From Patescibacteria group bacterium (GTDB taxonomy: Bacteria > Patescibacteriota > JABMPQ01): DNA of 64,000 bases. The stretch's first letter is position 1. The number at the start of each line of letters is the position of its first letter. A model generated the notes under the pieces. That model saw only the letters and a program-made list of their open reading frames with translations, was not told the DNA's origin and did no database searches. The stretch covers positions 6,105 to 70,104 of the forward strand of contig JAHJQX010000024.1 in NCBI GenBank assembly GCA_018818965.1. The letters are read 5' to 3'. The position numbers and the translations under genes were made by a program. Shown in pieces: positions 5,954-46,565 of the stretch.

Positions 5954-7141
5954 CTAGGTCGACAACTTCCCGATGATGGCGCTGGTCATCTCGGCGGTTG
6001 TGGCTGCTCCTTGCTCGATCACCTCGGGACCGCCCTTGAGGAACAGCATGTCATAGGTACACACACGGCCCTCCTTGATCACCCCGCCAATGGCCTCGTA
6101 AATGCGCTGGGCCATCTCCCGCTCCTCCAAATGAGTCAGCATCATGGCCGCCGAGAGGATCATCGCGCACGGGTTGACGATGGGCGGATCCAGCTCCGCG
6201 TATTTGGGCGCACTGCCGTGGGTGGGCTCGAACACCGCCACGTCCTGGCCGATGTTGGCGCTGGCGGCAAAGCCCAGACCGCCAATCAAGCCAGCGAAGC
6301 CATCGGAGCCGATGTCACCGAACATGTTGCTGGCGACGATCACGCCGTATTCAGCGGGGTTTTTGGTCAACCACATCATCTGGGCATCGATGTTGGTCTC
6401 CCAGAGCGCGATCCCAGGGAAGTCCTTCGCTACGACCTTGGCCACCTCGCGGAACATGCCACCAGTGGCTCGCATGACGTTGGGCTTCTCGCAGAGGGTG
6501 ACGGACTTGTAGCCGAACTTCTGCGCGTACTTGAAGGCAGCGCGCAGAATCCGCTCGCAAGCCGCTCGGGTGAAGATACGACAGGTGATCGCCAGCTCCT
6601 CGCCCGGCACTCCCTCGAAGGACTTGAACTTCGGGTGCGTACTGAACGCCCTGCGCACCTGCTCCGGCGGATCCGTCCACTCGACGCCGCAATATAGTCC
6701 CTCAGTATTTTGCCGAAAAACGACCACGTCGATTTCCGGTTCGAGGATCTTTTCATCCGATCCTCGCTGAACAAAGTTGAGCGGGTTACCGGGGAAAGTA
6801 CGGCAGGGACGGATGCAGACATCCAGATTGAACTCTCGCCGCAGGCCAACGATGGGACTGTAATACTGGAGACCCCGGTCCTGCAGCTCCGGTGCCAGCT
6901 CGGCCGCCGCCTCTGCCTGCGGCTTGGAGGTGATGGCGCCGAAAAGACCGACCTTGTGCTGGCGCAACAACTTGAGGGTACGATCAGGTAGCGGGTTGCC
7001 CTCGGTGCACCAGTGGCGCCAACCGATGTCGGCAAACACGTACTCGGCATCAAATCTAACCGCCTGGAGGACTCGTATAGCCTCCGCCAACACGATTTTT
7101 CCAATCCCGTCCCCCGGCATGAGTACAATTGTCCTGGTCAT
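5954..7141 (-). CDS. Isocitrate/isopropylmalate dehydrogenase family protein, within a GC-rich segment
   Basis: 395 aa. N-terminal LMPGDGIGKIV, NTEGLYCG and SNMFGDIGSD…GGLGFAASANIG motifs of beta-decarboxylating dehydrogenases. Codon usage is visibly GC3-rich, unlike the flanking genes. Confidence 0.75.
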   Translation of the reverse strand: MTRTIVLMPGDGIGKIVLAEAIRVLQAVRFDAEYVFADIGWRHWCTEGNPLPDRTLKLLRQHKVGLFGAITSKPQAEAAAELAPELQDRGLQYYSPIVGLRREFNLDVCIRPCRTFPGNPLNFVQRGSDEKILEPEIDVVVFRQNTEGLYCGVEWTDPPEQVRRAFSTHPKFKSFEGVPGEELAITCRIFTRAACERILRAAFKYAQKFGYKSVTLCEKPNVMRATGGMFREVAKVVAKDFPGIALWETNIDAQMMWLTKNPAEYGVIVASNMFGDIGSDGFAGLIGGLGFAASANIGQDVAVFEPTHGSAPKYAELDPPIVNPCAMILSAAMMLTHLEEREMAQRIYEAIGGVIKEGRVCTYDMLFLKGGPEVIEQGAATTAEMTSAIIGKLST

Positions 7142-7428
7142 GTAACTCTCCCTTTTGAAGATCCAGACAAAAACAGAGCGACCCCATGCCGCTCCTTACT
7201 AGTCGTTGGTTAGTAATTTAGCATGCTGGCGGAGAAAGTAAAGAATTTCTTGCTATTATACATGAAAAAAGCAGTAAACCTTGACATCTAATAGCTTATA
7301 TGATAGCCTGAGACAGTTTATAATCAAATCGAAAAAAGAAATTAGGCTGGAAGTTTTCTGGTTTGTAACTTTTTTTGAACGCCCGTGTGGCAGACGGGTA
7401 TAACCACCGAACGAGGGAGGAACACGAT

Positions 7429-7629
7429 ATGGTTAACTGGAGACAGAAGTGCGAGGCGTTGGAGAGAAAATATAAGGAACTGGAGCGAACTAGCGCCCTC
7501 TGGGTCGCGGCCAACAACGCCAAAGACGGGCGGATCAAGGAACTGGAGAGTGAACTCGAGAGGCTCAGGCGGCGAGTGGCCACACTCTCGCGACAACGCT
7601 CCTTGAAAAGAGCTGCCCAGGGAGGTTAA
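7429..7629 (+). CDS. Small coiled-coil protein (66 aa), GC-rich
   Basis: MVNWRQKCEALERKYKELER…ELESELERLRRR heptad-rich. Strong SD GAGGGAGG sits 8 nt upstream of the ATG at 7429. The ORF track starts it at 7375. Confidence 0.3.
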   Translation: MVNWRQKCEALERKYKELERTSALWVAANNAKDGRIKELESELERLRRRVATLSRQRSLKRAAQGG

Positions 7630-7632
7630 CCC

Positions 7633-7854
7633 ATGGCCATCTCCTGGCGAGAACACTGTCGGATCGCAGCGGAGGAACGCCTGGATCCTCGTCGTGACTT
7701 CAGCGAAGTCCGGCGACGGGCTGCACTGCGGGCGGTGGCTAATCGCCCCCAACGACGTCCACCGGTGATGATTCCTCCACCGGTAACGGTCACCGCACCA
7801 ATCCGACGTCAGCTCCTTCTTCCCGGTATCTTCCGCACCCAACACCGCCTCTAG
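7633..7854 (+). CDS. Arg/Pro-rich small ORF (73 aa), possibly non-coding
   Basis: Open frame in GC-rich DNA, where chance ORFs are common. No recognisable domain. Confidence 0.12.
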   Translation: MAISWREHCRIAAEERLDPRRDFSEVRRRAALRAVANRPQRRPPVMIPPPVTVTAPIRRQLLLPGIFRTQHRL

Positions 7855-7936
7855 CAACTAAAGAGACGGTTTTTTTATACAAAAAACTGCCCAGGGCAAA
7901 ACAGAGCAGCTAACAATAAACTATTAAAGGATAGAT

Positions 7937-8422
7937 TTACTCGTCCTCTTTCAATTTGATCACCACCTGCCGCTCCGGTTCCTCACCATAGCTGATAGTC
8001 ACTAAATCTTCTTCATCCGCTAGAAAAGTATGAACCACGCGCCGGTCGTAGGCTGGCATCGGGCGCAATATTTCTTTCTCTTTCGTACGACGGACATTGA
8101 GAGCCGCGCTGCGAGCAATACTACGCAAGCTGTCTTCTTTATCTCGTCGGTAGTTATTGACGTCAATTATAAATGGTACTATTTCACCTTCATTTTGTTT
8201 CCGGAGAAGTAAACGCACCACGTACTGGAAGGAAAACAGATTATCACCCGCCTGACCAATCATAATCTTGGCATCGTCAGTTTTGATATTAAGTACTAAA
8301 ACTTCTCTACCTTCTCGTTCTTCCAAGCGCTCAGAAATTTGCCCCGTTACCCCCATCTTATCAATCATCTCTGTTACTATCGTTTTAAGAATGCCAATGT
8401 TTTCCATTTCTATACCAGCCAT
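7937..8422 (-). CDS. jag: Jag/KhpB-like RNA-binding protein (KH + R3H)
   Basis: 161 aa. KH-like N-terminal half and R3H-like C-terminal half (…RRVVHTFLADEEDLVTISYGEEPER…). Sits immediately downstream of yidC as in the conserved cluster. Confidence 0.8.
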   Translation of the reverse strand: MAGIEMENIGILKTIVTEMIDKMGVTGQISERLEEREGREVLVLNIKTDDAKIMIGQAGDNLFSFQYVVRLLLRKQNEGEIVPFIIDVNNYRRDKEDSLRSIARSAALNVRRTKEKEILRPMPAYDRRVVHTFLADEEDLVTISYGEEPERQVVIKLKEDE

Positions 8423-8494
8423 ATATTTAGATTATTCGCTAATAGGCGTCAGTCTATCTTAATTATACAGGCCTGACGTCTAGCAACGACCCAT

Positions 8495-9316
8495 CTACTT
8501 GGCCGGAGTAGCAGACTTTTTCCCACCAGCGCCTTTCTCTTCTTTATTTTCCGGTTTCCACCATTTGATGATTAGATATTGCTGCCCGAGGGCAAATAAG
8601 GTTGTCGTCGCCCAATAAAGAGCCAAACCAGAAGGTAAACTCATAGCGATAAAGACAGTCATTACCGGCAGAAAATAGGTCATTTGCTTGGTCATCATCG
8701 AAGACATGTCAGCCGCAATGCCCTGACCCTTAGCCGATTTCTTCTTATTAGCTCCTTTGGGCATCATCATTCGCGATTGTAAGAACTGGAATATACCAGC
8801 CAAAACTGCCAAAATCAAGTTTGGTTCTGTCATATCCACCAGATTGATAAAGAAGTGGTTAACGGTTTCTGGCTGACTAACAAAAGAATAAAGCTTGTCC
8901 ATGCTTTCTGCATTCATCCCCACTCGGAAAACTCGGTAGAGAGCAAAAATGATTGGTAATTGGACTAACATTGGCAGGCAAGAAGAGGCGGGATTGATCT
9001 TATTCTTCTTATAAAACTCCATCAGCGCCTTGGTCTGCTCTTCCTTATTATCCTTGTGCTGCTGGCGCAACTTGTTCATCTCTGGTTGAAGCTGCTGCAA
9101 AGCCCGCTGGGACTTAGTTGCTTTGACCGACAGTGGCACCAAAACAAGTCGAACCAGTATTGTTACAATAATAATAGCCACCCCGATATCTCCTACCAGA
9201 TTATAACACCAGACCATTAGATTCAGGAGAGGCTGGAATAAGATTGTGTTGTAGATTTCGTAGAACATAATATTAATTTTTCCATTTCCCCGGCTTAGGT
9301 ACCGGATCATGCCCAC
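8495..9316 (-). CDS. yidC: Membrane protein insertase YidC (short Gram-positive/CPR type)
   Basis: Multi-TM 273 aa, YidC-like hydrophobic core with a C-terminal basic tail (KKSATPAK). Synteny yidD-yidC-jag. Confidence 0.85.
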
Positions 9317-9539
9317 CGTGGCTCAAAGGATTACAGCGCAACACTCGCCACGAGGTGAGAAGACTGCCTTTGATCAATCCGTGTCGCTTGATCGCCTGGT
9401 AGCCATACTCAGAGCACGTTGGATGAAAACGACAAAAACCGTAGGGCAACACTCTCGAGAAGATCCCGTGATCCATCGACAGTGTTTTTTGATATAAACG
9501 TATTAGTAATAGAAAGGGAACGCGTATAAATTCAAACAT
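9273..9539 (-). CDS. yidD: Membrane protein insertion efficiency factor YidD
   Basis: 88 aa with a conserved Cys-rich core (…[19 protein letters not shown]…). Overlaps the yidC start. Confidence 0.75.
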
Positions 9540-9541
9540 TG

Positions 9542-9889
9542 CTATTTAACCCCTATTAGACCCGCTTGCTGCAAAACATTTTTAAAAACATTTTCAATCT
9601 CTCGATAGGTTTTATCTGTAGCTTCCGGACGCACCATCACTACCACATCAAATCCCGGCTTGATATCAGCTAGAGCTAAGCGAATCACCTCACGCAAACG
9701 ACGCTTTACTTTATTACGCACGGTTGCTTTCTTTGACACTTTTATCCCGACCAAAAAACCAAAGCGCGATTGCGGCTGATTATTTTTTAATGACTTGATC
9801 GCAATAAACTGATGTTTAAAAAAACGACCATGGCGGTGGACGCGGGCAAAGTCATTATCTTTCTGTAATCTGTTGGCTAGCGGTAACAT
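9542..9889 (-). CDS. rnpA: Ribonuclease P protein component
   Basis: 115 aa, basic, RNR-like motif (…[11 protein letters not shown]…). Located between rpmH and yidD. Confidence 0.85.
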
Positions 9890-9906
9890 ATAATAAAAAG
9901 ATCTCG

Positions 9907-10044
9907 TTAAGCTGACAACCGCTTGCGGCCTTTGGCCCGACGACTTTTCAACACACGACGACCAGATTTGGTACGCATGCGTTTACGAAAACCGTGCTCT
10001 CGTTTTCTTTTTCTTTTCTTAGGTTGATATGTTCTTTTCGGCAT
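9907..10044 (-). CDS. rpmH: 50S ribosomal protein L34
   Basis: Manually translated 45 aa: [45 protein letters not shown]. Below the ORF-track length cut-off. Confidence 0.85.
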
Positions 10045-10120
10045 AGTGGCTTTAAAAATTACAAGCCTATTCTAACAGCTTGCTTCTACTCGGTCAATAA
10101 AGAATGGGTTAATATCAACA

Positions 10121-10149
10121 TTGATTTTTGTCTCAAATTGTGTTAAAAT
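10121..10149 (+). promoter_or_regulatory. Sigma70-like promoter candidate upstream of the 10180 gene
   Basis: TTGATT, 17 nt spacer, then TGT-TAAAAT (extended -10). Confidence 0.3.
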
Positions 10150-10179
10150 GGTAACAACTGGAGAAAATAATAAAAAACG

Positions 10180-10419
10180 ATGTCATATACATACACTGGG
10201 ATTAGAAGCAAGTTCAACACTGATGAGTTTGATTTTACTTCCGAAGGATCGCAAACAAGAGCTCTGGAAGAAATTAAAGAAGTAGCCAAGGGCGGTAAAA
10301 GGGGAGTAAGGCGCACAGAATTAATAAAAATTTTACAGAGAAATATGGGTCGAGACGCAGGCAGAAAGGCTTATAATAAAATTACTGGCGGTAAATCAGG
10401 AGGTTGGTTTGGATTTTAA
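10180..10419 (+). CDS. Basic Gly-rich hypothetical protein (79 aa)
   Basis: ORF with an SD-like GGAG upstream. Shares an R-x-E-[LI]-x-K-x-x-x-[MF]G module with the next ORF. Confidence 0.35.
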   Translation: MSYTYTGIRSKFNTDEFDFTSEGSQTRALEEIKEVAKGGKRGVRRTELIKILQRNMGRDAGRKAYNKITGGKSGGWFGF

Positions 10420-10943
10420 ATAAGTTATTTAATAACTGTAAACCAATGGCACCAAGAATAACTCAAGGGGACTTATATAAAGGAGTAAAACAAGGACTCA
10501 GCGGCCACGGTGGCGCCGCTAGGAGCGGTGCTTTAAATAAATTAGGTATAAAGAAACAGGGGCAAGGTCTACGTAAAGACAAGCACGTGGGTATTATGAA
10601 AACCAAAGTTGGAGCTAATAAATATATGCGGCGAGCTGGATTGAACCGTCTTGAACGCCGAGCGATTATGAAAACTATGTTTGGCTCGGGAAAGGCCGCT
10701 AACATTAAGACTACTGGAACTGATAAATTTGCTAATAATACTCCTGGTAATGCTCCCGCCAGTGGGAAAAAGGTCGGTCTCTTCAGCCGCGGTGACAGTG
10801 CCAGTCGGGCTCGGGCTCAAATCAGCAGACAATTTGGCACTCGTCCCGGCGGGCCTGGTTTTACCAGCGATCGTTCTTCTTCAACTGGCTCTTCTGCTGG
10901 TGGCTCTTCGGGCAGAACCCGTCCAGCTGGTCCCCTATTCTAA
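10404..10943 (+). CDS. Basic Gly/Ser-rich low-complexity hypothetical protein (alternative ATG at 10446)
   Basis: 179 aa, disordered-looking, with repeated GxxxG / KxG modules. C-terminus is SSSTGSSAGGSSGRTRPAGP. No domain recognised. Confidence 0.35.
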   Translation: MVWILNKLFNNCKPMAPRITQGDLYKGVKQGLSGHGGAARSGALNKLGIKKQGQGLRKDKHVGIMKTKVGANKYMRRAGLNRLERRAIMKTMFGSGKAANIKTTGTDKFANNTPGNAPASGKKVGLFSRGDSASRARAQISRQFGTRPGGPGFTSDRSSSTGSSAGGSSGRTRPAGPLF

Positions 10944-10961
10944 ACTAACATAAATTAAAAA

Positions 10962-10988
10962 GCGAAGGGATTCCCCTCGCTTTTTTTA
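10962..10988 (+). terminator. Rho-independent terminator
   Basis: gcgaaggg-att-cccctcgc hairpin followed by T7. Confidence 0.5.
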
Positions 10989-11021
10989 TTATTCAAAAAG
11001 TAGCTGAGATCTGTTATATTA

Positions 11022-11045
11022 AGCCTGCCTACCGGTAGGCAGGCT
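11022..11045. repeat. Perfect 24-nt palindrome agcctgcctaccggtaggcaggct
   Basis: Self-complementary across its full length. Shares the core CCTACC..GGTAGG with the hairpins at 33468-33491 and 44628-44652. Confidence 0.5.
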
Positions 11046-11052
11046 CTGCCGA

Positions 11053-11139
11053 GTAATATAATGGAGAGGTGGCTGAGCGGTTGAAGGCGTCGCTCTCGAA
11101 AAGCGATAGGTTCGCAAGGGCCTCGAGGGTTCAAATCCC
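11053..11139 (+). tRNA. tRNA-Ser (anticodon CGA), type II with long variable arm
   Basis: Acceptor GGAGAGG/CCTCTCC, anticodon loop CTCGAAA, T-arm GAGGG-TTCAAAT-CCCTC, discriminator G. Near-identical layout to the E. coli tRNA-Ser(CGA) sequence as I recall it from memory. Confidence 0.9.
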
Positions 11140-11177
11140 TCCCTCTCCGGTTTTATAGACGTGGATGAATAAAATAA

Positions 11178-11396
11178 TTATAAATATACTTCTTTGCGAT
11201 GCTTTATTCGCAAAATTATTAGAATGGTAATATTCCCTTGATCATCAATATCAAATACCACCCGATAATTTCCAATCCTAAACCGATAAGTTCCTAGTCT
11301 ACTGTCTTTCAGTTTTTTGGCATGCTGCAATGGGTTGCTTTGAACAATATAGAACCGTAATTTTTCCGCTATTCTCTTTTGGATATTTTTCTCCAA
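11178..11396 (-). CDS. RelE/ParE-family type II toxin-like protein (TTG start)
   Basis: 72 aa with a RelE/ParE-like core (…LGTYRFRIGNYRVVFDIDDQGNITILII…). The ORF track used a TTG initiation codon. No antitoxin ORF of 60 aa or more is adjacent. Confidence 0.55.
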   Translation of the reverse strand: MEKNIQKRIAEKLRFYIVQSNPLQHAKKLKDSRLGTYRFRIGNYRVVFDIDDQGNITILIILRIKHRKEVYL

Positions 11397-11400
11397 TGAA

Positions 11401-11430
11401 AAACCACCAGCTTAACGCTGGTGGTTTTTC
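11401..11430. terminator. Bidirectional rho-independent terminator hairpin
   Basis: aaaCCACCAGC-ttaac-GCTGGTGGttttt, an 8-bp perfect stem flanked by A- and T-runs. Confidence 0.55.
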
Positions 11431-11444
11431 CTGTAATAAAAAAA

Positions 11445-11461
11445 GGGCGCTGATGGCGCCC
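11445..11461 (-). terminator. GC hairpin with a T-run on the minus strand
   Basis: GGGCGC-tgatg-GCGCCC. The minus strand continues with tttttttatt. Confidence 0.4.
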
Positions 11462-11599
11462 TTATAAAAATATTTATGGCGCTCAGCGCCCTCAACGTCT
11501 CACGCTATACACTGCTACCCCCCGAAGGGAGTGGCAGAGATCGTTAGTGCGAAACGTGGGCGTCTGAACAAAAATTTAATTTTGTCAAACGTTGAATGA

Positions 11600-12100
11600 T
11601 TCTCTTACCATTCGTGTGGTAGTACGAACTTATTTGGCTCGTCTTACCGATTTTTGTTTTTGTTTATTTCTCGCCGAGGCGAGATCTATAAAGAACAAGT
11701 TATAAACAGTAAGAGATCTCTATAGAAGTAGCTTACCTCTGTAGAAAACTCTTACCCTTTTTCGTAAATCCCTTAACGTTCAACTTGAACACATCATAGC
11801 ACGTTTTTTAAACACAATCAAGGCAATTTTTTCAACATCTGTGGACAAAACCGCTATTTTTTTATTGGTTTACACTAAGCCCTAAAGTAGGCATTACTTG
11901 AAAAATAAATCGCTTAACAACAACTTATCAACAGTTTTCAACAATTTTCTGAACAATACTTTTATCCAAAATTAGGAGGTAATAAGGACTTTTTGGACTG
12001 AGTACCACATCTGGTTATTTGCGCTTAAAAAAGCCTCAATCTTAAAATAACCTGACATTATAGAAATAAATCTTGGATTACTGGACAACTATCTTGAACA
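11600..12100. other. AT-rich non-coding region with DnaA-box-like 9-mers; candidate replication-origin or regulatory region
   Basis: No ORF of 60 aa or more on either strand across about 700 bp. TGTGGACAA at 11840-11848, TTATCAACA at 11925-11933 and TTATCCAAA at 11962-11970 each differ by 1 nt from TTATCCACA. Several short palindromes (tctcgccgaggcgaga, agagatctct). Confidence 0.3.
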
Positions 12101-12110
12101 AAAGGCTTGA

Positions 12111-14888
12111 TTACTTGTCCTGAAGCCATTCCCAGGCGTGAGTGACAACTTGAGCTTTAGGGCAGTATTCTACCTGAGAAGTAGGCAAATTTTTAATAAA
12201 TTCTGCCCCGTATCGGGCTGTTTCCACCCGGTTATCCAAAACGATAAACACCCCCCGATCATCAACGCTTTTTATCAATTGTTGAAAAACTTGGCGCCAT
12301 TTCAATAACGCTTCTGGCAAAGCTGATTGCTGGAAAGCATTTTGACCACCTTGGCTACGCGCCGTAGTGAGAGGATCAGAGAAAAATCCAAAGGGCAGTT
12401 TATGGATAATCAGACAGGCTAATTTTTCTGAGGGAATCTCATTTTTTAATAAAAATTCGTGGGTGACTATTAGAACAGCCTGGTCTTGGTGAAAATATTC
12501 TTGCTTAACTTTATCTTCTCCTCCCGAAATGCCTAATCCCAACACCTTGATGCTCTTTTCCTTCAAAGGCAAAGCTAAATCGGTAAATATTTTTCTGACG
12601 GCCGCTCTACTACCACAAGATATAATTGTTTTCCCTTTCAATTTTGTAGCCATACCCATAACAATTCGTTGTAGATCTTGATGAAAACCGGGCTGGTTAT
12701 GACCAACAATATCAGTGGGCACAATGACCTTGGCCTGCTGGTCATACTGGTAAGGAGCAGCAATGTCATGCTGATTATATTCCTCACCTAGCCCTAAACG
12801 CTCGCGAAAATAATCGGTGTTCGTCTGGTTATTAAAGACCGAAGAAACAAAACTAACTGAGCCCGATTTCGCTAACAAATTGCTCTGCAGAAAATCGCCC
12901 ACCTGCTGGGGTGACAGTGAGAGTTGCAAATAGTTATTGTTCAAGCTCAGCCAAGCCACCTCGTTCGCCTCCGGTTGCAATATTATTTTCTCTAGTTCCT
13001 TGGTCGTATCGTAAAGATCCTGATAAGCACCAGATAGATCACAGTGGATTTCTTGAGCTGATTTTTGCTTCAGGGAGACTAATAATTTATCAAGTTGAGC
13101 CAAAAAAGCATACATGTCTACAATATAATTCTGGCCTGCTTGCTTTACCCGATCCCATTCCGGATACTGCCGCACATCAATATCGAGAGTCAAAGTGAAA
13201 TAGTCACCCCCCACGGCTAAATCCTGTTTCTGCTGGCTAGCAAAGATGCCCAAGACACCGAAAAACAAAGTTGTCTTGTCTTTAATTTTGGTTGCTTGTC
13301 TTATCAGCGCCGCCACTTGGCTCTTAGTAACTTTCTTGAGAAGTGCTTTTCTAGGAATTAGCTGCAAGAACCCCGGATCGTGATCCAACCAAGAAAGCTT
13401 CCTGGTGATACTATTTTCACTCAGCTGGAAACTCAAATAATGGGTAAACTGCTTTTCTAACTCTTGGGCTTCGTCGAAAATTACGTTTTTTATACGCAAA
13501 GATTTTCCTTCGGCAGCTAAAGCAGTGTGATTAAATATTACTACGTCCGATTTCTGCGCTTTTTGAAAAGCATTATAGTAAAAACAATCTTGGTAGTAAG
13601 AACAATTCTTCTGCAAACAGTATTTGACGTCACAATTAACCTGCTCTTCCACCCGATAATCTTCATAGCTCCAAGCCATTTCGGTAAAAAGGCCGAATTG
13701 GGCAATGTCTAGCCAAAGTAGCAGCTTGGCTAAAGCCTCCATCTGGGCAGTCGATAGTTCTGGCTTGTTTTTGAATTGCTCGAAACGCCGTCGACACAAA
13801 TATTTCCGCCGGTCTTCTAGCAAAGCCGGGGTGAAATTGAAGGGGGTAATGTTTTGAACTATTTCCGCTTCCTCGGTAGATAATTGTTTCTGCAAAGAAA
13901 AAGGACTGACAGAAATCGCTACCGATTGGCTGGTCTTTTTCGCCTGAGCCTGATAGGCAGCAGCAACTAGATAGGCTAAATATCGACCAACCCCTGGCCC
14001 AGCGTTAATAATTGACTGTTTGCTACCCGTGAAATCTTTTACTAGCTGCTGCAACAACGCTACTTGGCTTGGTCGGAACTCATAGTTGGTGATGATTTTT
14101 TTTAGCTGCTCTTTCTTTTTAAATAGGGCTTCGATCTCTGTCAGACCTACTCTGCGCTGATCGGTCTTTTTCGGAGTGGTTTTGGGCTTAGCTATTACCT
14201 TACTCTTTTTCTCTTTCTCGCCCCGACGTGCCGATAAAACCTGTTTGAAAACAGCTGCTAACCCCCAATCATGTTTGACCGCATACCTATTAATTTCCTG
14301 CAGAACGCCATAATTTACTTCGTAGATTCTCTTAACTAGTCGCAAAAAAAGATCCTTACTAGCCAAGACATCATCTAAAGCTCGATGACTTTCGATGTGC
14401 TTGATCTTGAGATAATTTGTCAGGACTTCCAAGCTATGAGAAGACAGCTCTGGCACCAACATAGTAGCCAGCTTCCAAGTATCATAGCGAGGGTTAGTCA
14501 ATTCTACTCCTTTACCCGCCAGAAAATTAATATCAAAATTAATATTATGGCCAACGATCGGGTGCTTACCGATAAATTTAACTAAATCATCTTTGACGTC
14601 GGCAAAGGGAGGTGCTTCAACTACCTGTTTGTCCACAATACCCGTAATCGCTGAGACAATGGCCGGAATTTTACCACTCGGCTTAGTCAAAAATTGAAAC
14701 TCCGCCAATACCTTATCACCTTTGAACTTAGCAGCCGCTACTTCAATAATGTCACCGCGGTTAGGCGTGAGATCGGTGGTTTCCAGATCGAGGGCAACGC
14801 AAGTTTTGGGAAAAGTTAGTTTCATGGGTGTCATGGTAGCAGGGTTTGGAGAGGGAGACAAATAAAAAAAGCTTCTTGTTATCATCAA
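12111..14888 (-). CDS. dinG: DinG-family ATP-dependent helicase with N-terminal DnaQ-like 3'-5' exonuclease domain
   Basis: 925 aa. N-terminal DEDDh exonuclease motifs (ALDLETTDL, GHNINFDINFL, HRALDD). Helicase motifs are divergent Walker A (NAGPGVGRY), DEAQ box (IFDEAQELE), an Fe-S Cys cluster (C..C…C..C) and motif VI-like (FIVLDNR). Confidence 0.8.
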   Translation of the reverse strand: MMITRSFFYLSPSPNPATMTPMKLTFPKTCVALDLETTDLTPNRGDIIEVAAAKFKGDKVLAEFQFLTKPSGKIPAIVSAITGIVDKQVVEAPPFADVKDDLVKFIGKHPIVGHNINFDINFLAGKGVELTNPRYDTWKLATMLVPELSSHSLEVLTNYLKIKHIESHRALDDVLASKDLFLRLVKRIYEVNYGVLQEINRYAVKHDWGLAAVFKQVLSARRGEKEKKSKVIAKPKTTPKKTDQRRVGLTEIEALFKKKEQLKKIITNYEFRPSQVALLQQLVKDFTGSKQSIINAGPGVGRYLAYLVAAAYQAQAKKTSQSVAISVSPFSLQKQLSTEEAEIVQNITPFNFTPALLEDRRKYLCRRRFEQFKNKPELSTAQMEALAKLLLWLDIAQFGLFTEMAWSYEDYRVEEQVNCDVKYCLQKNCSYYQDCFYYNAFQKAQKSDVVIFNHTALAAEGKSLRIKNVIFDEAQELEKQFTHYLSFQLSENSITRKLSWLDHDPGFLQLIPRKALLKKVTKSQVAALIRQATKIKDKTTLFFGVLGIFASQQKQDLAVGGDYFTLTLDIDVRQYPEWDRVKQAGQNYIVDMYAFLAQLDKLLVSLKQKSAQEIHCDLSGAYQDLYDTTKELEKIILQPEANEVAWLSLNNNYLQLSLSPQQVGDFLQSNLLAKSGSVSFVSSVFNNQTNTDYFRERLGLGEEYNQHDIAAPYQYDQQAKVIVPTDIVGHNQPGFHQDLQRIVMGMATKLKGKTIISCGSRAAVRKIFTDLALPLKEKSIKVLGLGISGGEDKVKQEYFHQDQAVLIVTHEFLLKNEIPSEKLACLIIHKLPFGFFSDPLTTARSQGGQNAFQQSALPEALLKWRQVFQQLIKSVDDRGVFIVLDNRVETARYGAEFIKNLPTSQVEYCPKAQVVTHAWEWLQDK

Positions 14889-35704: not shown

Positions 35705-37438
35705 ATGCTTCTAGATATTAAAAAACTCAAAATAAGTTTAGTTGAGAAGGGTTTAATTAATTCCCACGATTTTGATGTGCTTGTAGCCAAAGCAACCAAA
35801 GAAAAAAAGGAGATTACTGACATATTGCTGTCAGAAAACATCGTTACTGAAGAAAATTTATACCAAGAATTATCCCGCCAAATTAAAATACCTTTCGTTG
35901 ATTTGTCAAAAACTATTATCCGTAAGGATATCTTGTTTCAAATTCCGGAATTAATCGCTAAAAAGCATGAAATTATTGCTTTTTCCGAAGACGAAACTGG
36001 TCTCGGGGTCGCCATGACCAATCCCGAAGATTTACAGACAATAGAGTCCATCAAAAAAAAGGTTGGTAAACACATCGAGCCTTATGTAGCCAGTAAAGGT
36101 GATATTTTTTCGGCTCTCAAACAATATCGTCGCGGACTACGCCAAGAGTTCAAAGATATTATTGATCAAAGTTTGGCCATTTCACGGACTGCAAGTGACG
36201 ATGACCTAGAAAAACTAGCAGAAAATCTCCCTATTGTCCGAATCGTTAATACTTTGATTGACCATGCTATTTTACAAAACGCCAGCGATATCCACATCGA
36301 GCCTCTGGAAAAGAATGTGATCATCAGATTCCGGATAGACGGCATTTTACATGACGTTATTGTTCTACCTAAAGAAATTCTAGCCGGAATTGTCGCGCGT
36401 ATTAAGGTACTAGCTAATTTAAAAATTGACGAACACCGTCTACCGCAAGACGGACGTTTCAAGATAGAAAAAGATGAACAGAAAATTTCTTTCCGGGTTT
36501 CTATTATCCCAATATTCGACGGCGAGAAAGTGGTAACCCGCCTCTTGGTCGAATCAGGGCGTATTTTATCTTTAGAAGAGCTGGGCTTTCAGAGTTCTGC
36601 CCTTGCGATAACCAAAAGAAACGTTAACAAGCCAAACGGCCTTATCTTAGTTACTGGTCCGACTGGTTCTGGTAAAACCACCACTCTCTACTCGATCATG
36701 AATATGCTCAATACGACCGAAGTTAATATTGCCACTATCGAAGATCCCATCGAATATCGAATGCCTCGTATCAACCAAAGTCAGGTTAAGCCTAAAATCG
36801 GTTTTACTTTCTCCACCGGACTGCGGTCTCTAGTGCGTCAAGATCCAGATATTATTATGGTCGGTGAAATCCGCGACGAAGAGACAGTTGAAATGGCTAT
36901 TCATTCAGCCCTAACTGGTCATTTAGTTCTCTCTACTCTACACACCATGAGTGCTGCCGGGGCTCCTCCTCGTTTGATCGATATGAAAGCCAAGCCTTTT
37001 CTGGTAGCTTCTACTTTGAATCTAATTATCGCTCAACGATTGGTTCGACGTATTTGTAAAAACTGCCGTGAAGAATACAAACTCGATGCAAAAAAGATCG
37101 CCATACTAGAAAAAGAATTTGATATGGAGAAAATAATGCCAGCGTTGTTACAAGAAAAGGTAATTACTGCAAAGAAGCCATTATCTGAACTAACTTTTTA
37201 CCGGGGCAAGGGCTGTGAGCACTGCAATTTGCAGGGTTACAAGGGACGAACAGGAATTTACGAAACATTAGAAACAACCGAAACTATTAAAGACTTAATT
37301 GTAGACTCAGCGCCCACAGAAAAAATTCAAGCTCAGGCTGTGTCCGAAGGGATGATTACTATGCTTCAGGATGGCTTTATCAAAGCTTTATTAGGATTTA
37401 CTACTATTGACGAAATATTACGAGTCACCAAAGAATAA
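35705..37438 (+). CDS. pilB: Type IV pilus assembly ATPase PilB (GspE family)
   Basis: N-terminal T2SSE_N-like domain; Walker A LVTGPTGSGKTTT, Asp box, His box, tetra-Cys (CKNC…CEHC). TATAAT about 60 nt upstream. Confidence 0.85.
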   Translation: MLLDIKKLKISLVEKGLINSHDFDVLVAKATKEKKEITDILLSENIVTEENLYQELSRQIKIPFVDLSKTIIRKDILFQIPELIAKKHEIIAFSEDETGLGVAMTNPEDLQTIESIKKKVGKHIEPYVASKGDIFSALKQYRRGLRQEFKDIIDQSLAISRTASDDDLEKLAENLPIVRIVNTLIDHAILQNASDIHIEPLEKNVIIRFRIDGILHDVIVLPKEILAGIVARIKVLANLKIDEHRLPQDGRFKIEKDEQKISFRVSIIPIFDGEKVVTRLLVESGRILSLEELGFQSSALAITKRNVNKPNGLILVTGPTGSGKTTTLYSIMNMLNTTEVNIATIEDPIEYRMPRINQSQVKPKIGFTFSTGLRSLVRQDPDIIMVGEIRDEETVEMAIHSALTGHLVLSTLHTMSAAGAPPRLIDMKAKPFLVASTLNLIIAQRLVRRICKNCREEYKLDAKKIAILEKEFDMEKIMPALLQEKVITAKKPLSELTFYRGKGCEHCNLQGYKGRTGIYETLETTETIKDLIVDSAPTEKIQAQAVSEGMITMLQDGFIKALLGFTTIDEILRVTKE

Positions 37439-37445
37439 CTAGAAA

Positions 37446-38663
37446 ATGCCTAAATTCACTTACACCGCCCGTGATCAAAAAGGGCAAATAAAAAGGGGGG
37501 TGCTAAACGCAAACAATAAAAGTAGCTTGGCGGAAACTCTGCGTGATCAGGGTTTATTGCTAACCCAGGCAGAATCAGACTCAGATGGAAAAAGAAAAAC
37601 GCATAAAAACACCTCTTCTCTTTTCGGTGGAGTTTCGACTATTGACAAGATAATGTTTACTAAAAATCTGCAGGTGATGATCAAATCGGGACTTTCGATT
37701 CTACGCGCCCTTGATATCCTCAATCGCCAAACAGCTAATAAAAAATTCAAAAAAACTATCGGCGACATTCGCCAGAGCGTAGAGAAAGGGACTGAATTAG
37801 CTAGCAGTTTAAGATCATACCCCAAAATATTTTCTCCCTTTTTCGTTAGTATGATCAAAGTAGGTGAAGTTAGTGGTAAGCTAGAGGACGTATTGGCCGA
37901 ACTAGCTACTCAAATGAAAAAAGATCGTGATCTGATGGTTAAGGTGAGAAGTGCCATGATGTACCCCTCGGTAGTTTTAATGACCATGTTTACAGTAATC
38001 ATTTTAATGCTAGCTTTCGTTCTGCCTAAATTGACTGACATTTTCAAAGACTTCCAGGTAGAATTGCCACTCACTACCAAAATACTAATTGGTTTTTCTG
38101 AGTTAATACAATCCTACGGAATATTCGTCTTGCTGGGAGGAATTATTATTATTATCCTATTCGTCCTTTATTCTCGAACCAAGGGTGGAAGAGAGAAAAT
38201 CCACGCTCTTAACCTACGACTGTTTATTCTTGGTCCCATCCTCAAACAAATTAACCTGGCTCGCTTCTCTCGTACCATGGGCACTCTTTTGCGCAGTGGC
38301 ATCCCAATTGTTGAAGCTCTTAGCATCACTAGTGACGTTCTTGGAAATGTACATTACAAAAAAGTAATGTCAGATGCTGCCAACAAGATTAAAAAAGGAG
38401 TAAAATTAGTCGATATTTTAGAAGAAAGCAAAAAACTATTCCCCCCTCTAACTACTCAGATGGTTATGGTAGGAGAAGAGACCGGCACTTTAGATAATAT
38501 TCTCGAGGAAGTAGCTGATTTCTATGAGGGCGAATTGACCGAGACAATGAATAATCTCTCCTCTATCCTCGAACCAGTACTAATGGTATTATTAGGGTTG
38601 GGAGTAGGTATTGTGGCTGTTTCTATCGTTTCGCCTATTTACTCATTGATGGAAAATTTTTAA
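37446..38663 (+). CDS. pilC: Type IV pilus inner-membrane platform protein PilC (GspF family)
   Basis: 405 aa. Two GspF-like repeats with 3 TM segments. Confidence 0.85.
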   Translation: MPKFTYTARDQKGQIKRGVLNANNKSSLAETLRDQGLLLTQAESDSDGKRKTHKNTSSLFGGVSTIDKIMFTKNLQVMIKSGLSILRALDILNRQTANKKFKKTIGDIRQSVEKGTELASSLRSYPKIFSPFFVSMIKVGEVSGKLEDVLAELATQMKKDRDLMVKVRSAMMYPSVVLMTMFTVIILMLAFVLPKLTDIFKDFQVELPLTTKILIGFSELIQSYGIFVLLGGIIIIILFVLYSRTKGGREKIHALNLRLFILGPILKQINLARFSRTMGTLLRSGIPIVEALSITSDVLGNVHYKKVMSDAANKIKKGVKLVDILEESKKLFPPLTTQMVMVGEETGTLDNILEEVADFYEGELTETMNNLSSILEPVLMVLLGLGVGIVAVSIVSPIYSLMENF

Positions 38664-38675
38664 TAATTTTAAATC

Positions 38676-39995
38676 TTGTACAAAAACCACCGAGACAAGG
38701 GAACAACTCTGATCGAAATTTTAGTAGCCATTACTATTATTGGTATTGTTTTTGTAGCGATCTTCGCCATCTTCCGCATGGTGATCCAAAGCTCTGCCAT
38801 TAGTGAAGCACGCACCACTGCTACCGGCCTCGCTAACCAGCAAATGGAGATGATCCATAATTTACCCTACAACGATATCGCTACCACTAGCGGTTGGCCG
38901 CAGGGTGACATCCCTAGCACCAAAACTGAAGTCCTCAACAACATTACCTTTACTATCAATACTAATGTCAATTACGTTGACAATCCCTTTGATGACACAG
39001 TACCCATCGATACTCTAGGAGCCGACTACAAAAAAGTAAAAGTGGAGGTTTCTTGGGATAAATTTTATAGTGGTACGCCCGTTATTTTACACACTGACAT
39101 TTCATCCCGGGGCATAGAAGAAACCGAACAGCCAGGAGGGGTATTATACATCAAAGTCTTCGACGCTAATAATCAACCGGTAGCCGGAGCTAATATTCAA
39201 GTTGTCAACAATGATCTGAGCCTTAATTTTTCTGATACAACCAATAATGCTGGTGAGAGAGTATTTTACGCTCTCACTCCAGATAGTGGAGCCAATTATG
39301 AAATTCTGGTGACAAAGGGCGGCTACACTACTGACTATACCTCGGAGATTACTCCCGAAATGCCCGATCCCGATAATCCTCACCGTTCTATCTTTGAAGG
39401 ACAAGTGGAAACAGCCAGCTTCACAATTGATATTGTTAGCTCACTGACTATTAACACCCAAGACGATAGTGATCCTCCTTCCTCCCTGGCGAATATACCT
39501 TTGACCATCACCGGAGAAAGACGTTTAGGTCTAGGCAGTGAAAATGAGTTGGTGCCAAGAAATAAGTTCGAAGGACAACAAACTGATGGCTCAGGGCAGT
39601 TAACTTTATCTAATATTGAATGGGATTCATATAACATTACAGAGGAGGATGCCAATTACGATATTGCTGAAATAAACCCTCCCAACCCAACCAATGTCGC
39701 CCCCAATGAGAACCTAACTACTATCCTTACTCTAGTCAGTCACGCTGCTCATACTTTGCGTGTAGTTGTATCAGACAACAACGATAATCCTCTTGCCGAT
39801 ACCAGTGTACGCCTTTATGGTAATGGCTTTGATGAGACAAAGCAGACTAGTGCTGTCGGCCAAGTTTTTTTTACCCCTCTACAACAAGCAACCTATAATC
39901 TAGAAATAACCAAGTCGGGCTATATCAGTTTTTCCGATACAAGCGAAGTAGAAGAGCAAACCGTTAGAGAAGTAGTAATGGCGACACAATCATGA
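38676..39995 (+). CDS. Large prepilin-type N-terminal domain protein (439 aa), minor-pilin/tip-adhesin candidate
   Basis: Class III signal-like DKG|TTLIEILVAITIIGIV with Glu at +5, and an unusual Thr at +1. Long beta-rich C-terminal region including a carboxypeptidase-regulatory-like segment. Confidence 0.55.
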   Translation: MYKNHRDKGTTLIEILVAITIIGIVFVAIFAIFRMVIQSSAISEARTTATGLANQQMEMIHNLPYNDIATTSGWPQGDIPSTKTEVLNNITFTINTNVNYVDNPFDDTVPIDTLGADYKKVKVEVSWDKFYSGTPVILHTDISSRGIEETEQPGGVLYIKVFDANNQPVAGANIQVVNNDLSLNFSDTTNNAGERVFYALTPDSGANYEILVTKGGYTTDYTSEITPEMPDPDNPHRSIFEGQVETASFTIDIVSSLTINTQDDSDPPSSLANIPLTITGERRLGLGSENELVPRNKFEGQQTDGSGQLTLSNIEWDSYNITEEDANYDIAEINPPNPTNVAPNENLTTILTLVSHAAHTLRVVVSDNNDNPLADTSVRLYGNGFDETKQTSAVGQVFFTPLQQATYNLEITKSGYISFSDTSEVEEQTVREVVMATQS

Positions 39996-40615
39996 AGCAG
40001 CTTCAACCCACTAAAAATCGATCGGCCGGTTTTACTATTCTCGAGATGATAATAGTATTTGGAGTTTTTGGGGTGGCTCTTGTTGTCACTACTTCCTACT
40101 TTTGGATGAGTCTGCGAGTGCAAAACAAAAGCGTTAAGCATATTGTGGCGCAAGACAATGCTCGACGAGCCCTGACTGCCATGGCCGGAGAAATCAGAAG
40201 TAATATGTACTCCGACGCTGGTTCTTATCCAATTGAAGTGGCCGAGGGGCAATCGCTTATTTTCTACACCAACATCGATGATGACGTTAACGCCGAAAGG
40301 GTGCGCTATTTTCTCGACGGCACTGACCTAAAACGAGGAGTGATTGAACCTTCGGGACAACCGCCAACCTATTCTAGTGTCAATGAACAAATCAATACCC
40401 TATCTAGTTACAACGCCAATGGGGTAAATGACATTTTTACCTATTATGATCGTGACTACGACGGGACAACTAGTCCCTTACCTTCCCCGGTAAATAAGAG
40501 TAAAATTAGATTGATCAAAATTAATCTTACCATTGACGTTGATAGCAATACCCCACCAGACCCGATCACTGTTACAACCGAAGCCCAACTTAGGAATTTA
40601 AAGGACAATCTATAA
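39992..40615 (+). CDS. Prepilin-type (pseudo)pilin
   Basis: …RSAG|FTILEMIIVFGVFGVALVV canonical G|FTxxE prepilin cleavage motif. 207 aa. Confidence 0.6.
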   Translation: MKQLQPTKNRSAGFTILEMIIVFGVFGVALVVTTSYFWMSLRVQNKSVKHIVAQDNARRALTAMAGEIRSNMYSDAGSYPIEVAEGQSLIFYTNIDDDVNAERVRYFLDGTDLKRGVIEPSGQPPTYSSVNEQINTLSSYNANGVNDIFTYYDRDYDGTTSPLPSPVNKSKIRLIKINLTIDVDSNTPPDPITVTTEAQLRNLKDNL

Positions 40616-40620
40616 ACAAT

Positions 40621-42015: not shown

Positions 42016-42018
42016 CCT

Positions 42019-43101: not shown

Positions 43102-43104
43102 ACT

Positions 43105-43665
43105 ATGATTACTATTAATCTCTTACCAAAAAGATTCAAAAGGAGGGCGGATATAGAAAGAATTAACCTATCTATCGTCGCTATGTTAATCTTGCTTTTT
43201 GTTATTGTTGGTTTGACTATCGAATTATTATTTGCCACTAAAAAATTCCTTAATGCTAATATTGAAACTTTAGAAAGTCAGCAACAGGCCTATGAAGATT
43301 TCTTTACTTCTGATGTCAATAAAGACATCAACGATAAAATAGTAAAAACTAATCAACTAGCTATCCAAGTAGGTAAAATACAGGCCGGCCGAACCAGCTG
43401 GTCAGAACTATTGACTGAATTAGCTATCGTCACCCCTCCCGAAATAAAGCTAACCGATATTCAAAGTAATATACTGAATAAATCTATCACCATCTCAGGA
43501 AGAGCAGAAACTCGTGACCGACTTTTAGACTACAGTAAAAGTTTAGAAAGCTCCGATTATTTTGCTAGTGTAGACTTGCCTTCCTCCTACCTTAGCAGTC
43601 CGACTGATATTTCCTTTGAAATAAAAGCAAATCTGTCTCTAGCTACATCATCAGCTGGAGATTAA
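43105..43665 (+). CDS. pilN: Type IV pilus assembly protein PilN
   Basis: Canonical PilN start INLLP followed by a TM. 186 aa. Position after pilM. Confidence 0.6.
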   Translation: MITINLLPKRFKRRADIERINLSIVAMLILLFVIVGLTIELLFATKKFLNANIETLESQQQAYEDFFTSDVNKDINDKIVKTNQLAIQVGKIQAGRTSWSELLTELAIVTPPEIKLTDIQSNILNKSITISGRAETRDRLLDYSKSLESSDYFASVDLPSSYLSSPTDISFEIKANLSLATSSAGD

Positions 43666-43672
43666 CAAAGTT

Positions 43673-46562: not shown

Positions 46563-46565
46563 AAA

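Follow-up and report, generated by a model that had tools for sequence, protein, structure and literature searches.

In the 64,000-nt stretch of Patescibacteria DNA analysed here (the window), the divergent neighbours of rpmH are two small genes, orfA and orfB, which form an operon confined to a small clade of Parcubacteria (Patescibacteria/CPR). Both genuinely encode proteins and are under purifying selection, and their family is tiny and without detectable relatives. As a whole explanation we tentatively propose, at a little short of an even chance, a clade-specific operon of abundant nucleic-acid-binding accessory proteins.

An operon divergent from the rpmH cluster

The rpmH side of the locus is canonical: Pfam identifies all five genes of the rpmH-rnpA-yidD-yidC-jag cluster on one strand and in the usual order (7937-10044, minus strand), so that the cluster is indeed complete, as an earlier note on this DNA had stated. 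The genes, all on the minus strand, are rpmH, encoding ribosomal protein bL34 (9907..10044; Ribosomal_L34, 1.8e-22), rnpA, encoding the RNase P protein (9542..9889; Ribonuclease_P, 9.6e-25), yidD (9273..9539; YidD, 1.7e-25), the membrane insertase gene yidC (8495..9268; 60KD_IMP, 1.2e-51) and, last in the cluster, jag/khpB with its R3H and KH domains (7937..8422; R3H 2.6e-15, KH_KhpA-B 5.5e-06). The yidC frame reaches a GTG at 9316; homologues favour the ATG at 9268, which gives 257 aa, the product length in relatives (gene calls of L001 and L009, and alignment). On the plus strand, and diverging from rpmH as described before, lie orfA (10180..10419, 79 aa) and, after a gap of 26 nt, orfB (10446..10943). 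The latter had been given as about 165-179 aa: the 165-aa form from the ATG at 10446 stands, since all homologues begin at a Met aligned with it, and the 179-aa form from a TTG is unsupported. A tRNA-Ser(CGA) gene (11062..11150, plus strand; ARAGORN, Rfam tRNA 56.9 bits) is the conserved downstream neighbour and the only RNA element at the locus above the Rfam gathering threshold. Directly downstream of the pair, besides this tRNA gene, there is also a ParE toxin gene.

The pair and rpmH have back-to-back promoters. That of orfA-orfB (10121..10149, plus strand), proposed earlier as sigma70-like, is recovered by a promoter scan as TTGATT, a 17-nt spacer and TAAAAT with a TG extended -10 (9 of 12 with the TG), and is 23 bp from the -35 box of the rpmH promoter (10069..10097, minus strand; TTGACC, 17-nt spacer, TAGAAT and TG extended -10, 10 of 12). 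Near-consensus and near-invariant overall, the orfA-orfB promoter has ATTGATTT and TGnTAnAAT unchanged in seven loci, the marine L095 included; both rpmH hexamers are kept in the five loci covering that stretch. A conserved A-rich leader, GAGAAAATAATAAAAAAC (10159..10179, plus strand; alignment), directly precedes the orfA ATG, and no Shine-Dalgarno motif is found at working distance before this codon, such motifs being rare in the source genome (7 of 40 genes). Beyond orfB, a hairpin followed by a T-run (10957..10992, plus strand) probably serves as intrinsic terminator for the orfA-orfB transcript. Either strand can form it: the terminator scan calls it on the minus strand with 13 pairs, it is also found as an inverted repeat, and on the plus strand the stem contains a single A-C mismatch, with TTTTTTTAT after it. 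The shared promoter, the short gap and the hairpin terminator make orfA and orfB a two-gene operon.

Purifying selection and module exchange

For orfA, dN/dS is 0.07 between the window and L001 (dS 1.1); for orfB it is 0.047 between L005 and L007 (dS 0.32) and 0.16-0.24 for more distant pairs. Such purifying selection speaks for translation of the ORFs. That they might instead be ORFs by chance, or parts of a non-coding RNA, could be suggested by the missing Shine-Dalgarno, the low-complexity tail of B and the database annotation as "hypothetical protein", but dN/dS values of 0.05-0.24 with saturated synonymous sites effectively refute the idea, to which we give next to no credence: the frames remain intact in seven lineages despite indels, AlphaFold2 confidence is good, genes without a Shine-Dalgarno are the norm here (33 of 40) and Rfam finds nothing in the region.

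The flanking DNA of L005 and L007 is 88-93% identical; gene A has been swapped exactly, from the start codon to the A-B spacer, and identity between the two A proteins is 29-36%, the value varying with the way alignment positions are counted. A types and B N-domain types are found in all four combinations, B is a mosaic, and its tail types assort independently of its N-domain types. From these patterns, lineages exchange modules (the type of A, of the B N-domain and of the B tail) by recombination, which suggests that the modules act as generic, interchangeable binders and not as a specific pair in tight co-evolution. The locus offers a clean case of cassette exchange by homologous recombination between related uncultivated CPR lineages.

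Predicted architecture of the two proteins

Both proteins had been described as low-complexity. This holds for residues 84-165 of B; A and residues 1-80 of B are compact in AlphaFold2 models, and the pair is not simply low-complexity because both members carry a predicted folded domain. Each is predicted to consist of a compact domain of ~75 residues with four helices, followed by a Gly-rich flexible segment with a basic-basic-x-G-hydrophobic-F-[S/G] motif; B is predicted to add a disordered Ser/Gly/Arg-rich tail of 85 residues with a conserved 35-residue block. The two models, computed from thin alignments of only 4 and 7 sequences, have a similar order of predicted secondary-structure elements.

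Protein A has a pI of 10.1 and 15% Gly. Its model is compact (mean pLDDT 82, pTM 0.69), with a predicted domain at residues 1-72 and then a Gly-rich tail ending in GGWFGF. In every A tail a Lys/Gly run leads up to a [L/W/G]F[W/S/G] tip: type-2 proteins end in ...KGKKKSGGLFSGLFGG, their tail being KKKSGGLFSGLFGG, and the type-1 tips are only 3-4 residues long. Protein B is more basic (pI 11.9, net charge +26, 18% Gly). Its N-terminal domain (residues 1-80; 10446..10685, plus strand; pLDDT 80-91) has the predicted order strand-helix-helix-strand-helix-helix and many conserved Lys/Arg, of which K32, K36, K37, R43, K54, R63 and R71 are invariant in the alignment; its conservation extends to the partial proteins of L093 and L095. 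The tail (residues 81-165; 10686..10943, plus strand) is Ser/Gly/Arg-rich and predicted to be disordered (pLDDT 42-52), with a conserved block KKxG[LMV]F[SG]RGDSASRARAQI..QFG..GPG[FY]TSDRS and a C-terminus RPxGPLF; the tip is not universal, being RPPKLVT in L001. No other protein of the window shares the tail motifs of the pair. One match of the B tail elsewhere, in L045 (E = 3e-4), is compositional, because it falls on the C-terminal tail, rich in Gly, Ser and Lys, of a high-GC YidC.

A common origin of A and B is not supported. The earlier note had proposed a shared R-x-E-[LI]-x-K-x-x-x-[MF]G module, but this pattern literally fits neither protein; the 16-mers quoted for it agree at 5 of 16 positions and score 20 under BLOSUM62, a value attained by 93% of shuffles, and hhalign gives a probability of 0.2-0.4% for A against B (local and global modes, enlarged alignments). 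Gly-Lys repeats had likewise been ascribed to both proteins, and Tandem Repeats Finder reports none; an hhalign self-comparison for an internal repeat in B is negative.

Two specific identities were considered for A and rejected. Weak PDB matches (E >=0.1) prompted an EF-hand at residues 28-63, for which one would expect a 12-residue loop D-x-[DN]-x-[DN]-G...E between two helices and an EF-hand pair fold. We reject this lead because the loop, KGGKRGVRRTE, is basic and lacks acidic ligands, and because no EF-hand fold is matched: none of the 50 listed Foldseek PDB matches for A is an EF-hand protein. A double-glycine bacteriocin leader (..EEIKEVAKGG) was dismissed by inspection: the hydrophobic spacing is wrong, A is predicted to be folded, and the window holds no C39-peptidase exporter.

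A family without detectable relatives

That neither protein has a recognisable domain is borne out by Pfam, NCBIfam, PHROGs and PADLOC, which give no match even when the homologues are included. Word-indexed searches return 4 and 7 proteins, and an exhaustive profile search of 1.84 billion protein representatives recovers, besides the family itself, no more than a single fragment and one low-complexity match. Against PDB sequence profiles all E values are above 0.09 (best for B, uS12 at E = 0.45; for A, the EF-hand proteins at E >=0.1), and Foldseek against PDB and BFVD returns nothing with E below ~1, so that the structure prediction and profile comparison suggested in the earlier note yield compact folds without a match to known families. 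A scan of viral contigs finds no viral relative of B. None of the homologues is annotated as a known nucleoid or ribosomal protein, and there is no Pfam, NCBIfam or solved-structure match of A or B to known nucleoid-associated or ribosomal families. The non-significant fold matches (E of 1 or more) include helix-hairpin-helix glycosylases and NusB.

In being taxonomically restricted, unannotated and small, the two proteins resemble the 54,343 lineage-specific unknown gene-family clusters catalogued in Patescibacteria (PMC9132574), and as it stands the pair is one among these tens of thousands of families. It differs from them by its fixed synteny, its invariant promoter, purifying selection and confident fold predictions.

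dnaA and the history of the site

The absence of dnaA beside the cluster, as first noticed, is confirmed: neither dnaA nor dnaN nor a remnant of them is present in the window or the contig flanks read. The six frames of the window contain no DnaA Walker-A or domain IV signature motif; tblastn of 10 proteins (DnaA and DnaN of related loci) gives a best E of 0.12 against the window; Pfam places its large ORFs in families other than DnaA; and no DnaA is listed in the gene calls of the contig flanks (~6 kb upstream, ~10 kb downstream). It was also fair to say that dnaA-dnaN normally sits at this site. Of the related metagenome loci, 38 include sequence upstream of rpmH; in 22 of them the immediate divergent neighbour is a DnaA-motif ORF, and 9 more have one within ~1.7 kb of rpmH (31 of 38 in total); a Pfam check of one such locus finds DnaA plus DnaN. 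In Patescibacteria, DnaA, DnaN, RnpA and RpmH are reported to be commonly co-located (PMC12102498). Compared with this bacterial rpmH-dnaA order, the rpmH-side half of our locus is complete and canonical, whereas the divergent neighbours are orfA, orfB and tRNA-Ser, and the rpmH-orfA spacer lacks a DnaA box: none with at most one mismatch occurs in 10045-10179 or in 10180-11061, against a density of 3.2 per kb in the rpmH-dnaA spacers of relatives.

A search for homologues at the same locus, as the earlier note had advised, shows the pair to be kept at this position in at least seven lineages, always adjacent and in the same order (for orfA, the window ORF and six homologues, at the same locus wherever context exists). 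Synteny with the rpmH-rnpA-yidD-yidC-jag cluster holds in L001-L006 and L009, and the short contigs L093 and L095 carry the pair beside those parts of the cluster that they contain; tRNA-Ser(CGA) follows orfB in the window, L001, L005 and L007. In L014, the closest relative outside the pair-bearing clade (YidC 62% identical), rpmH faces tRNA-Ser(CGA) across ~300 nt, with no orfA, orfB or remnant. Two other close relatives, L013 and L016, also have no dnaA at the site, and L013 has prs and tyrS there. The rpmH-dnaA linkage was therefore already broken in the wider clade, a rearrangement of known kind. The earlier statement that the pair stands in place of dnaA is thus misleading as history: the pair sits in the gap between rpmH and tRNA-Ser and is not a substitution for dnaA-dnaN, and no connection between the pair and dnaA is demonstrated, because the wider clade had already lost the linkage. 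Small ORFs beside rpmH in the high-GC loci L050, L051, L055 and L063 have the look of chance ORFs and bear no relation to the pair.

Further downstream, 0.9-1.5 kb from orfB, lies a cluster of DnaA-box-like 9-mers (11840-12409). It is statistically real (3 boxes within 714 nt and 5 within 650 nt, where shuffles give 0.15 and 0.18) and is absent from L001 and L005, both of which have orfA-orfB. The locus has no GC-skew switch.

Possible functions of the pair

Within the overall proposal, that A and B are abundant polyanion-binding accessory proteins which bind nucleic acid seems to us possible rather than probable. The suggestion draws on their charge, the conserved basic residues and the strong promoter, with abundance judged solely from promoter quality. 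The ligand could be DNA of the nucleoid, or else RNA, ribosomal or other; the B tail and the conserved Lys/Arg in the folded domains would make the contacts, and the hydrophobic tips, together with the conserved block of the tail, would serve for docking to a partner or surface. Like HU/IHF, Hc1-like proteins, bL34 and bS21, A and B are small with a very high pI, and B has a disordered basic tail; the strong promoter of the pair stands back-to-back with that of rpmH, a ribosomal-protein gene. Unlike these proteins, however, A and B have no sequence or fold match, the B tail is Ser/Gly/Arg-rich rather than Lys/Ala/Pro-rich, and the family occurs in no more than a handful of lineages. A high basic charge together with hydrophobic or aromatic tips would be just as compatible with attachment to an anionic membrane.

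A and B could alternatively be peripheral membrane proteins whose Lys/Gly segments and hydrophobic or aromatic tips target the membrane in the manner of MinD with its C-terminal amphipathic helix, perhaps acting with yidC and yidD; we consider this unlikely, though worth keeping in view. The membrane-targeting sequence of MinD comprises residues 256-270 (PMC8155659). Type-2 A proteins, ending in ...KGKKKSGGLFSGLFGG, share with E. coli MinD (KKGFLKRLFGG, ending in ...EEEKKGFLKRLFGG) the terminal pattern G-hydrophobic-hydrophobic-x-x-hydrophobic-hydrophobic-G-G, all A tails have the [L/W/G]F[W/S/G] tip, and B has an internal KKVGLFS and a terminal GPLF. Yet the A tails have hydrophobic moments of 0.12-0.42, lower than the 0.48 of MinD, contain no basic residues inside the hydrophobic repeat and are very rich in glycine, which disfavours a helix, and the type-1 tips are very short; the remainder of the proteins is unrelated to MinD, neither A nor B has a transmembrane segment or signal peptide, and the pair is divergent from yidC and not co-transcribed with it. 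Very improbable, in our view, is a mobile or conflict cassette beside a tRNA gene, for instance a toxin-antitoxin-like or addiction module. Two small co-transcribed genes, the exact swap of gene A between ~90%-identical genomes, the mosaic B, and the tRNA and ParE toxin genes next door would all suit it. What speaks against it is the single fixed chromosomal site in every lineage, not a sporadic distribution, and the invariant housekeeping-type promoter; PADLOC, Pfam and PHROGs give no match to type II toxin-antitoxin or defence systems, no viral copy of B was found, the pair is on the 5' side of the tRNA gene, AlphaFold2 predicts an enzyme-like domain in neither protein, and the A types mix freely with the B types, the opposite of cognate toxin-antitoxin specificity.

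A part in replication seems to us slightly more improbable still: the proteins would act at the DnaA-box-like cluster or bind the sliding clamp through their LF tips, partly compensating the relocation of dnaA-dnaN. The site does hold dnaA-dnaN in most relatives and the box cluster is significant, but in L014 dnaA is already gone from the site and the pair is not there, the cluster is missing in L001 and L005 despite the pair, a GC-skew switch is not seen at this position and neither protein resembles any replication protein. The beta-clamp-binding motif has the consensus QL[SD]LF. Among the B proteins, P0002 ends in QGKLF and resembles it; it is the only one of five with the Gln (AGPLF in the window, SGPLF in L005), and L001, with PKLVT, has no LF tip at all. 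We are similarly doubtful of the more ambitious notion that A and B are a new class of abundant chromatin-like or ribosome-associated proteins peculiar to one Parcubacteria clade, or, more radically, origin-associated factors working with the downstream box cluster in a lineage where dnaA left the origin region or was lost; it would be compatible with two domains that match no known fold and with the significance of the box cluster.

For about half of the genes of CPR bacteria no function is assigned. If A and B prove to be abundant nucleic-acid- or membrane-binding proteins, they would be a clade-specific addition to a very reduced CPR cell biology. As two small, confidently predicted domains without a match to known folds, they would be easy targets for structural and biochemical work.

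A conserved gene pair divergent from rpmH

The rpmH-rnpA-yidD-yidC-jag cluster is complete on the minus strand, as the earlier note described it, with a clear Pfam match for each of its five genes: rpmH (9907-10044), rnpA (9542-9889), yidD (9273-9539), yidC (8495-9316, its homologues preferring the ATG at 9268) and jag/khpB (7937-8422). Divergent from rpmH, on the plus strand, are orfA (10180-10419), encoding A (79 aa, pI 10.1, 15% Gly), and orfB, listed as an ORF at 10404-10943 with a TTG start and 179 aa. Because every homologue begins at the Met aligned with ATG 10446, the orfB product B is 165 aa long (pI 11.9, net charge +26, 18% Gly); of the sizes first proposed, 79 and 165 aa stand, while the TTG start and its 179 aa do not.

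Homologues at the same locus of other CPR genomes, which the earlier note had suggested looking for, do exist, in the same order and position: profile search recovers six homologues of A, a 5.8-billion-cluster collection holds three full-length homologues of B (47-58% identical), and wherever context exists orfA and orfB sit side by side, always in this order, and point away from rpmH. The metagenome loci carrying the pair are L001-L004, L005, L006, L007, L009, L092, L093 and L095-L098, the last four including marine contigs, one from a TARA sample. Far from being untranslated, as had been allowed for, orfA and orfB are real, conserved genes under purifying selection: Nei-Gojobori dN/dS is 0.07 for A (window versus L001, dS 1.1), 0.047 for B between L005 and L007 (dS 0.32) and 0.16-0.24 for B in more distant pairs, with 0.02-0.11 for rnpA, jag and yidC in the same pairs. 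B evolves faster than its neighbours: between the window and L001 its identity is 54%, whereas rnpA, jag and yidC reach 77-88%.

Few parts of the locus are as well conserved as the 135-nt rpmH-orfA spacer, where two promoters stand back to back, both having a TG extended -10: TTGACC-17-TAGAAT on the minus strand (10097 down to 10069) for rpmH and TTGATT-17-TAAAAT for orfA (10121-10149, plus strand), the latter recovered by our scan where it had been proposed. The pattern ATTGATTT plus TGnTAnAAT is invariant in 7/7 loci, including a marine one. From this conserved promoter, an A-B gap of 26 nt and a hairpin with T-run ending the unit (10957-10992), we infer that orfA-orfB is probably a constitutively well-expressed two-gene operon. 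An A-rich leader lies just 5' of the orfA ATG; of 40 window genes checked, only 7 show a Shine-Dalgarno-like motif 6-18 nt ahead of the start codon, which makes its absence here uninformative, and the source organism seems to initiate translation largely without Shine-Dalgarno pairing.

Predicted folds and shared features of A and B

A and B belong to no described family. Both are "hypothetical protein" in the source MAG (MBU1178166.1, MBU1178167.1) and match nothing in profile libraries (Pfam, NCBIfam, PHROGs, PADLOC), in keeping with the claim that neither has a recognisable domain and with no sign of known nucleoid or ribosomal homologues; HMMER, run exhaustively with a profile against 1.84 billion representatives, returned only the family itself, a 69-aa fragment and a low-complexity match. 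AlphaFold2 predicts A (7 sequences; mean pLDDT 82, pTM 0.69) as E2-3, H5-12, H22-35, E43-44, H45-56 and H58-69 with residues 73-79 disordered, and B (4 sequences) as E4-6, H7-17, H23-33, E47-51, H54-64 and H68-79, with pLDDT 80-91 over residues 1-80 and a disordered region at 84-165 (pLDDT 42-52). The description "low-complexity" thus suits the B tail but not the predicted folded domains of A and B 1-80. The order of predicted elements is similar in the two proteins; profile-profile comparison detects no homology between them (probability 0.2-0.4%).

The module said to be shared by A and B does not survive scrutiny: neither protein fits its pattern as written, the two 16-mers agree at 5/16 positions and score 20 in BLOSUM62, a value that 93% of shuffled pairs reach, and the quoted segments fall on non-equivalent AlphaFold2 elements, strand 2 and helix 3 in A and helix 4 in B. 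The best 16-mer pairing of the real proteins scores 25, reached by 46% of shuffled pairs. The proposed Gly-Lys repeats are likewise not detected by Tandem Repeats Finder, nor does profile self-comparison find an internal repeat in B. orfB does carry a 20-nt direct repeat (10593-10612 and 10665-10684, 80% identical, 72 nt apart) coding for IMKTKVG and IMKTMFG, on different predicted secondary-structure elements. The feature that A and B do have in common is a short motif, basic-basic-x-G-hydrophobic-F-[S/G]. All A proteins close with [L/W/G]F[W/S/G] after a Lys/Gly run; within the B tail, low-complexity as it is, lies a strongly conserved block, KKxG[LMV]F[SG]RGDSASRARAQI..QFG..GPG[FY]TSDRS, and 4/5 B proteins end in RPxG[PK]LF. 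In the B domain the Lys/Arg residues K32, K36, K37, R43, K54, R63 and R71 are invariant, and they are also kept in the divergent marine protein.

Unknown families of narrow taxonomic range abound in this phylum, one study cataloguing 54,343 lineage-specific clusters in Patescibacteria (PMC9132574). The pair is set apart only by how well its being functional is supported: synteny is fixed, the promoter does not vary, selection is purifying and the folds are predicted with confidence.

History of the site

That dnaA and dnaN are absent from the locus was borne out throughout: no reading frame of the window contains a DnaA Walker-A or signature motif; Pfam assigns all other large window ORFs elsewhere (among them IF-2, RNase Y, UvrD, PPDK, PNPase, PolA, a type IV pilus cluster and XerC/D-like integrases); tblastn of ten DnaA and DnaN queries, taken from related loci, against the window gives a best E of 0.12; and DnaA is not among the gene calls ~6 kb upstream and ~10 kb downstream. 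That dnaA normally sits here also holds. Among 79 metagenome loci related through YidC, 38 have usable DNA upstream of rpmH; a DnaA-motif ORF is the immediate divergent neighbour of rpmH in 22, usually followed by an ORF of ~370-390 aa, and lies within ~1.7 kb in 9 more. In L018, one such locus, Pfam confirms DnaA and DnaN. The dnaA-dnaN spacer of nearer dnaA-bearing relatives (19-29% GC, 2-5 DnaA boxes) fits an origin, as expected. In a survey of Patescibacteria, DnaA, DnaN, RnpA and RpmH are reported to be commonly co-located (PMC12102498).

The pair does not, however, stand "in place" of dnaA, since the closest pair-less relatives by YidC identity already lack dnaA beside rpmH: L013 (55%) has prs and tyrS at the site, L016 (52%) shows no DnaA-motif ORF across its available 1.3 kb, and in L014 (62%, the closest; region 22-549) rpmH faces tRNA-Ser(CGA) across a ~300-nt gap with no ORF and without DNA resemblance to orfA or orfB. 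This gap contains GC-rich hairpins. The same tRNA gene lies 3' of orfB in the window (11062-11150), L001, L005 and L007. The simplest history is that the wider clade lost the rpmH-dnaA linkage first, and that the pair later arose or inserted in the rpmH/tRNA-Ser gap of a sub-clade; alternatively, L014 lost the pair. A broken rpmH-dnaA gene order is a known kind of rearrangement.

Mosaic evolution of the pair

The DNA flanking gene A is 88-93% identical between L005 and L007 on both sides, and from start codon to A-B spacer (L005:2383-2661, L007:108-377) there is no DNA similarity; one genome encodes an 89-aa type-2 A and the other an 81-aa type-1 A, the identity between these proteins being 29-36%, according to the way of counting the alignment. 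Between these two genomes gene A has been replaced exactly, as a cassette, a clean exchange of some added interest. The B N-domain of the window is 66% identical to that of L001 versus 35% to L005, and its tail 65% to L005 versus 32% to L001; N-domain and tail types assort independently, and A type and B N-domain type are found in all four combinations. Together, the cassette swap and this assortment point to exchange of modules by recombination between uncultivated CPR lineages and speak against A and B having co-evolved tightly as a pair.

Possible functions

The reading we favour, tentatively, is that A and B are abundant polyanion-binding proteins that would bind nucleic acid on the nucleoid or ribosome, as suggested by their extreme basic charge, the conserved basic residues on small helical domains, the disordered Ser/Gly/Arg tail and a strong promoter paired with that of a ribosomal-protein gene. 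The main rival, membrane binding, is rather unlikely. Type-2 A tails (KKKSGGLFSGLFGG) resemble the C-terminal end of E. coli MinD (EEEKKGFLKRLFGG), which is membrane-targeting (PMC8155659); the hydrophobic moments of A tails are lower (0.12-0.42 versus 0.48). We give little credence to a toxin-antitoxin or mobile cassette.

A replication-linked pair is hardly probable. Within 11397-12450, a 714-nt non-coding stretch flanked by a ParE-like ORF and a DinG-like gene holds three DnaA-box-like 9-mers (at most 1 mismatch to TTATCCACA), with two more just inside the dinG 3' end; the five boxes are at 11840-, 11925+, 11962+, 12232+ and 12401-. No other such cluster occurs in the window or in L001, L005, L009, L011 and L013, and its counts of 3 and 5 compare with 0.15 and 0.18 in dinucleotide shuffles, 0/1000 of which reach them; GC skew does not switch at this position, and neither L001 nor L005 conserves the stretch. 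An orphan or vestigial origin is one possible identity for the cluster, a DnaA-regulated promoter another. For the pair, a role that is origin-linked or chromatin-like and tied to this cluster (11.84-12.41 kb), possibly in a lineage without local dnaA, seems to us quite improbable. What probability these readings leave over belongs to functions not named here.

Other features of the window

The ParE-family ORF (11178-11396, minus strand; 72 aa, TTG start) covers only profile positions 28-89 and has no antitoxin gene upstream; its L001 counterpart is an 89-aa ParE with a 102-aa partner, and the window copy looks like a truncated, decaying toxin-antitoxin module. In the adjacent 925-aa protein (12111-14888, minus strand), an RNase T/DnaQ-like exonuclease domain at the N-terminus is joined to a C-terminal DinG-type helicase domain. 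Beyond jag, an isocitrate/isopropylmalate dehydrogenase-family gene (5954-7141, minus strand), also found in L002, L003 and L009, was probably acquired horizontally, given that it lies in a 56% GC island (5954-7857; window ~42%) and has a Shine-Dalgarno-like GGGAGAG, unlike most window genes. Between it and jag gene calls disagree: one assembly has a 171-aa ORF without Pfam match (7342-7857, minus strand), and relatives have a 93-aa plus-strand gene at the position equivalent to 7375-7629, where the window ORF (plus strand) encodes an 84-aa protein of coiled-coil appearance. The type IV pilus assembly cluster (35705-44296) comprises T2SSE ATPase, T2SSF, PilM, PilN and a pilin-like protein with carboxypeptidase-regulatory-like domains, and is followed on the opposite strand by two tandem DUF3352 paralogues (44700-48242).
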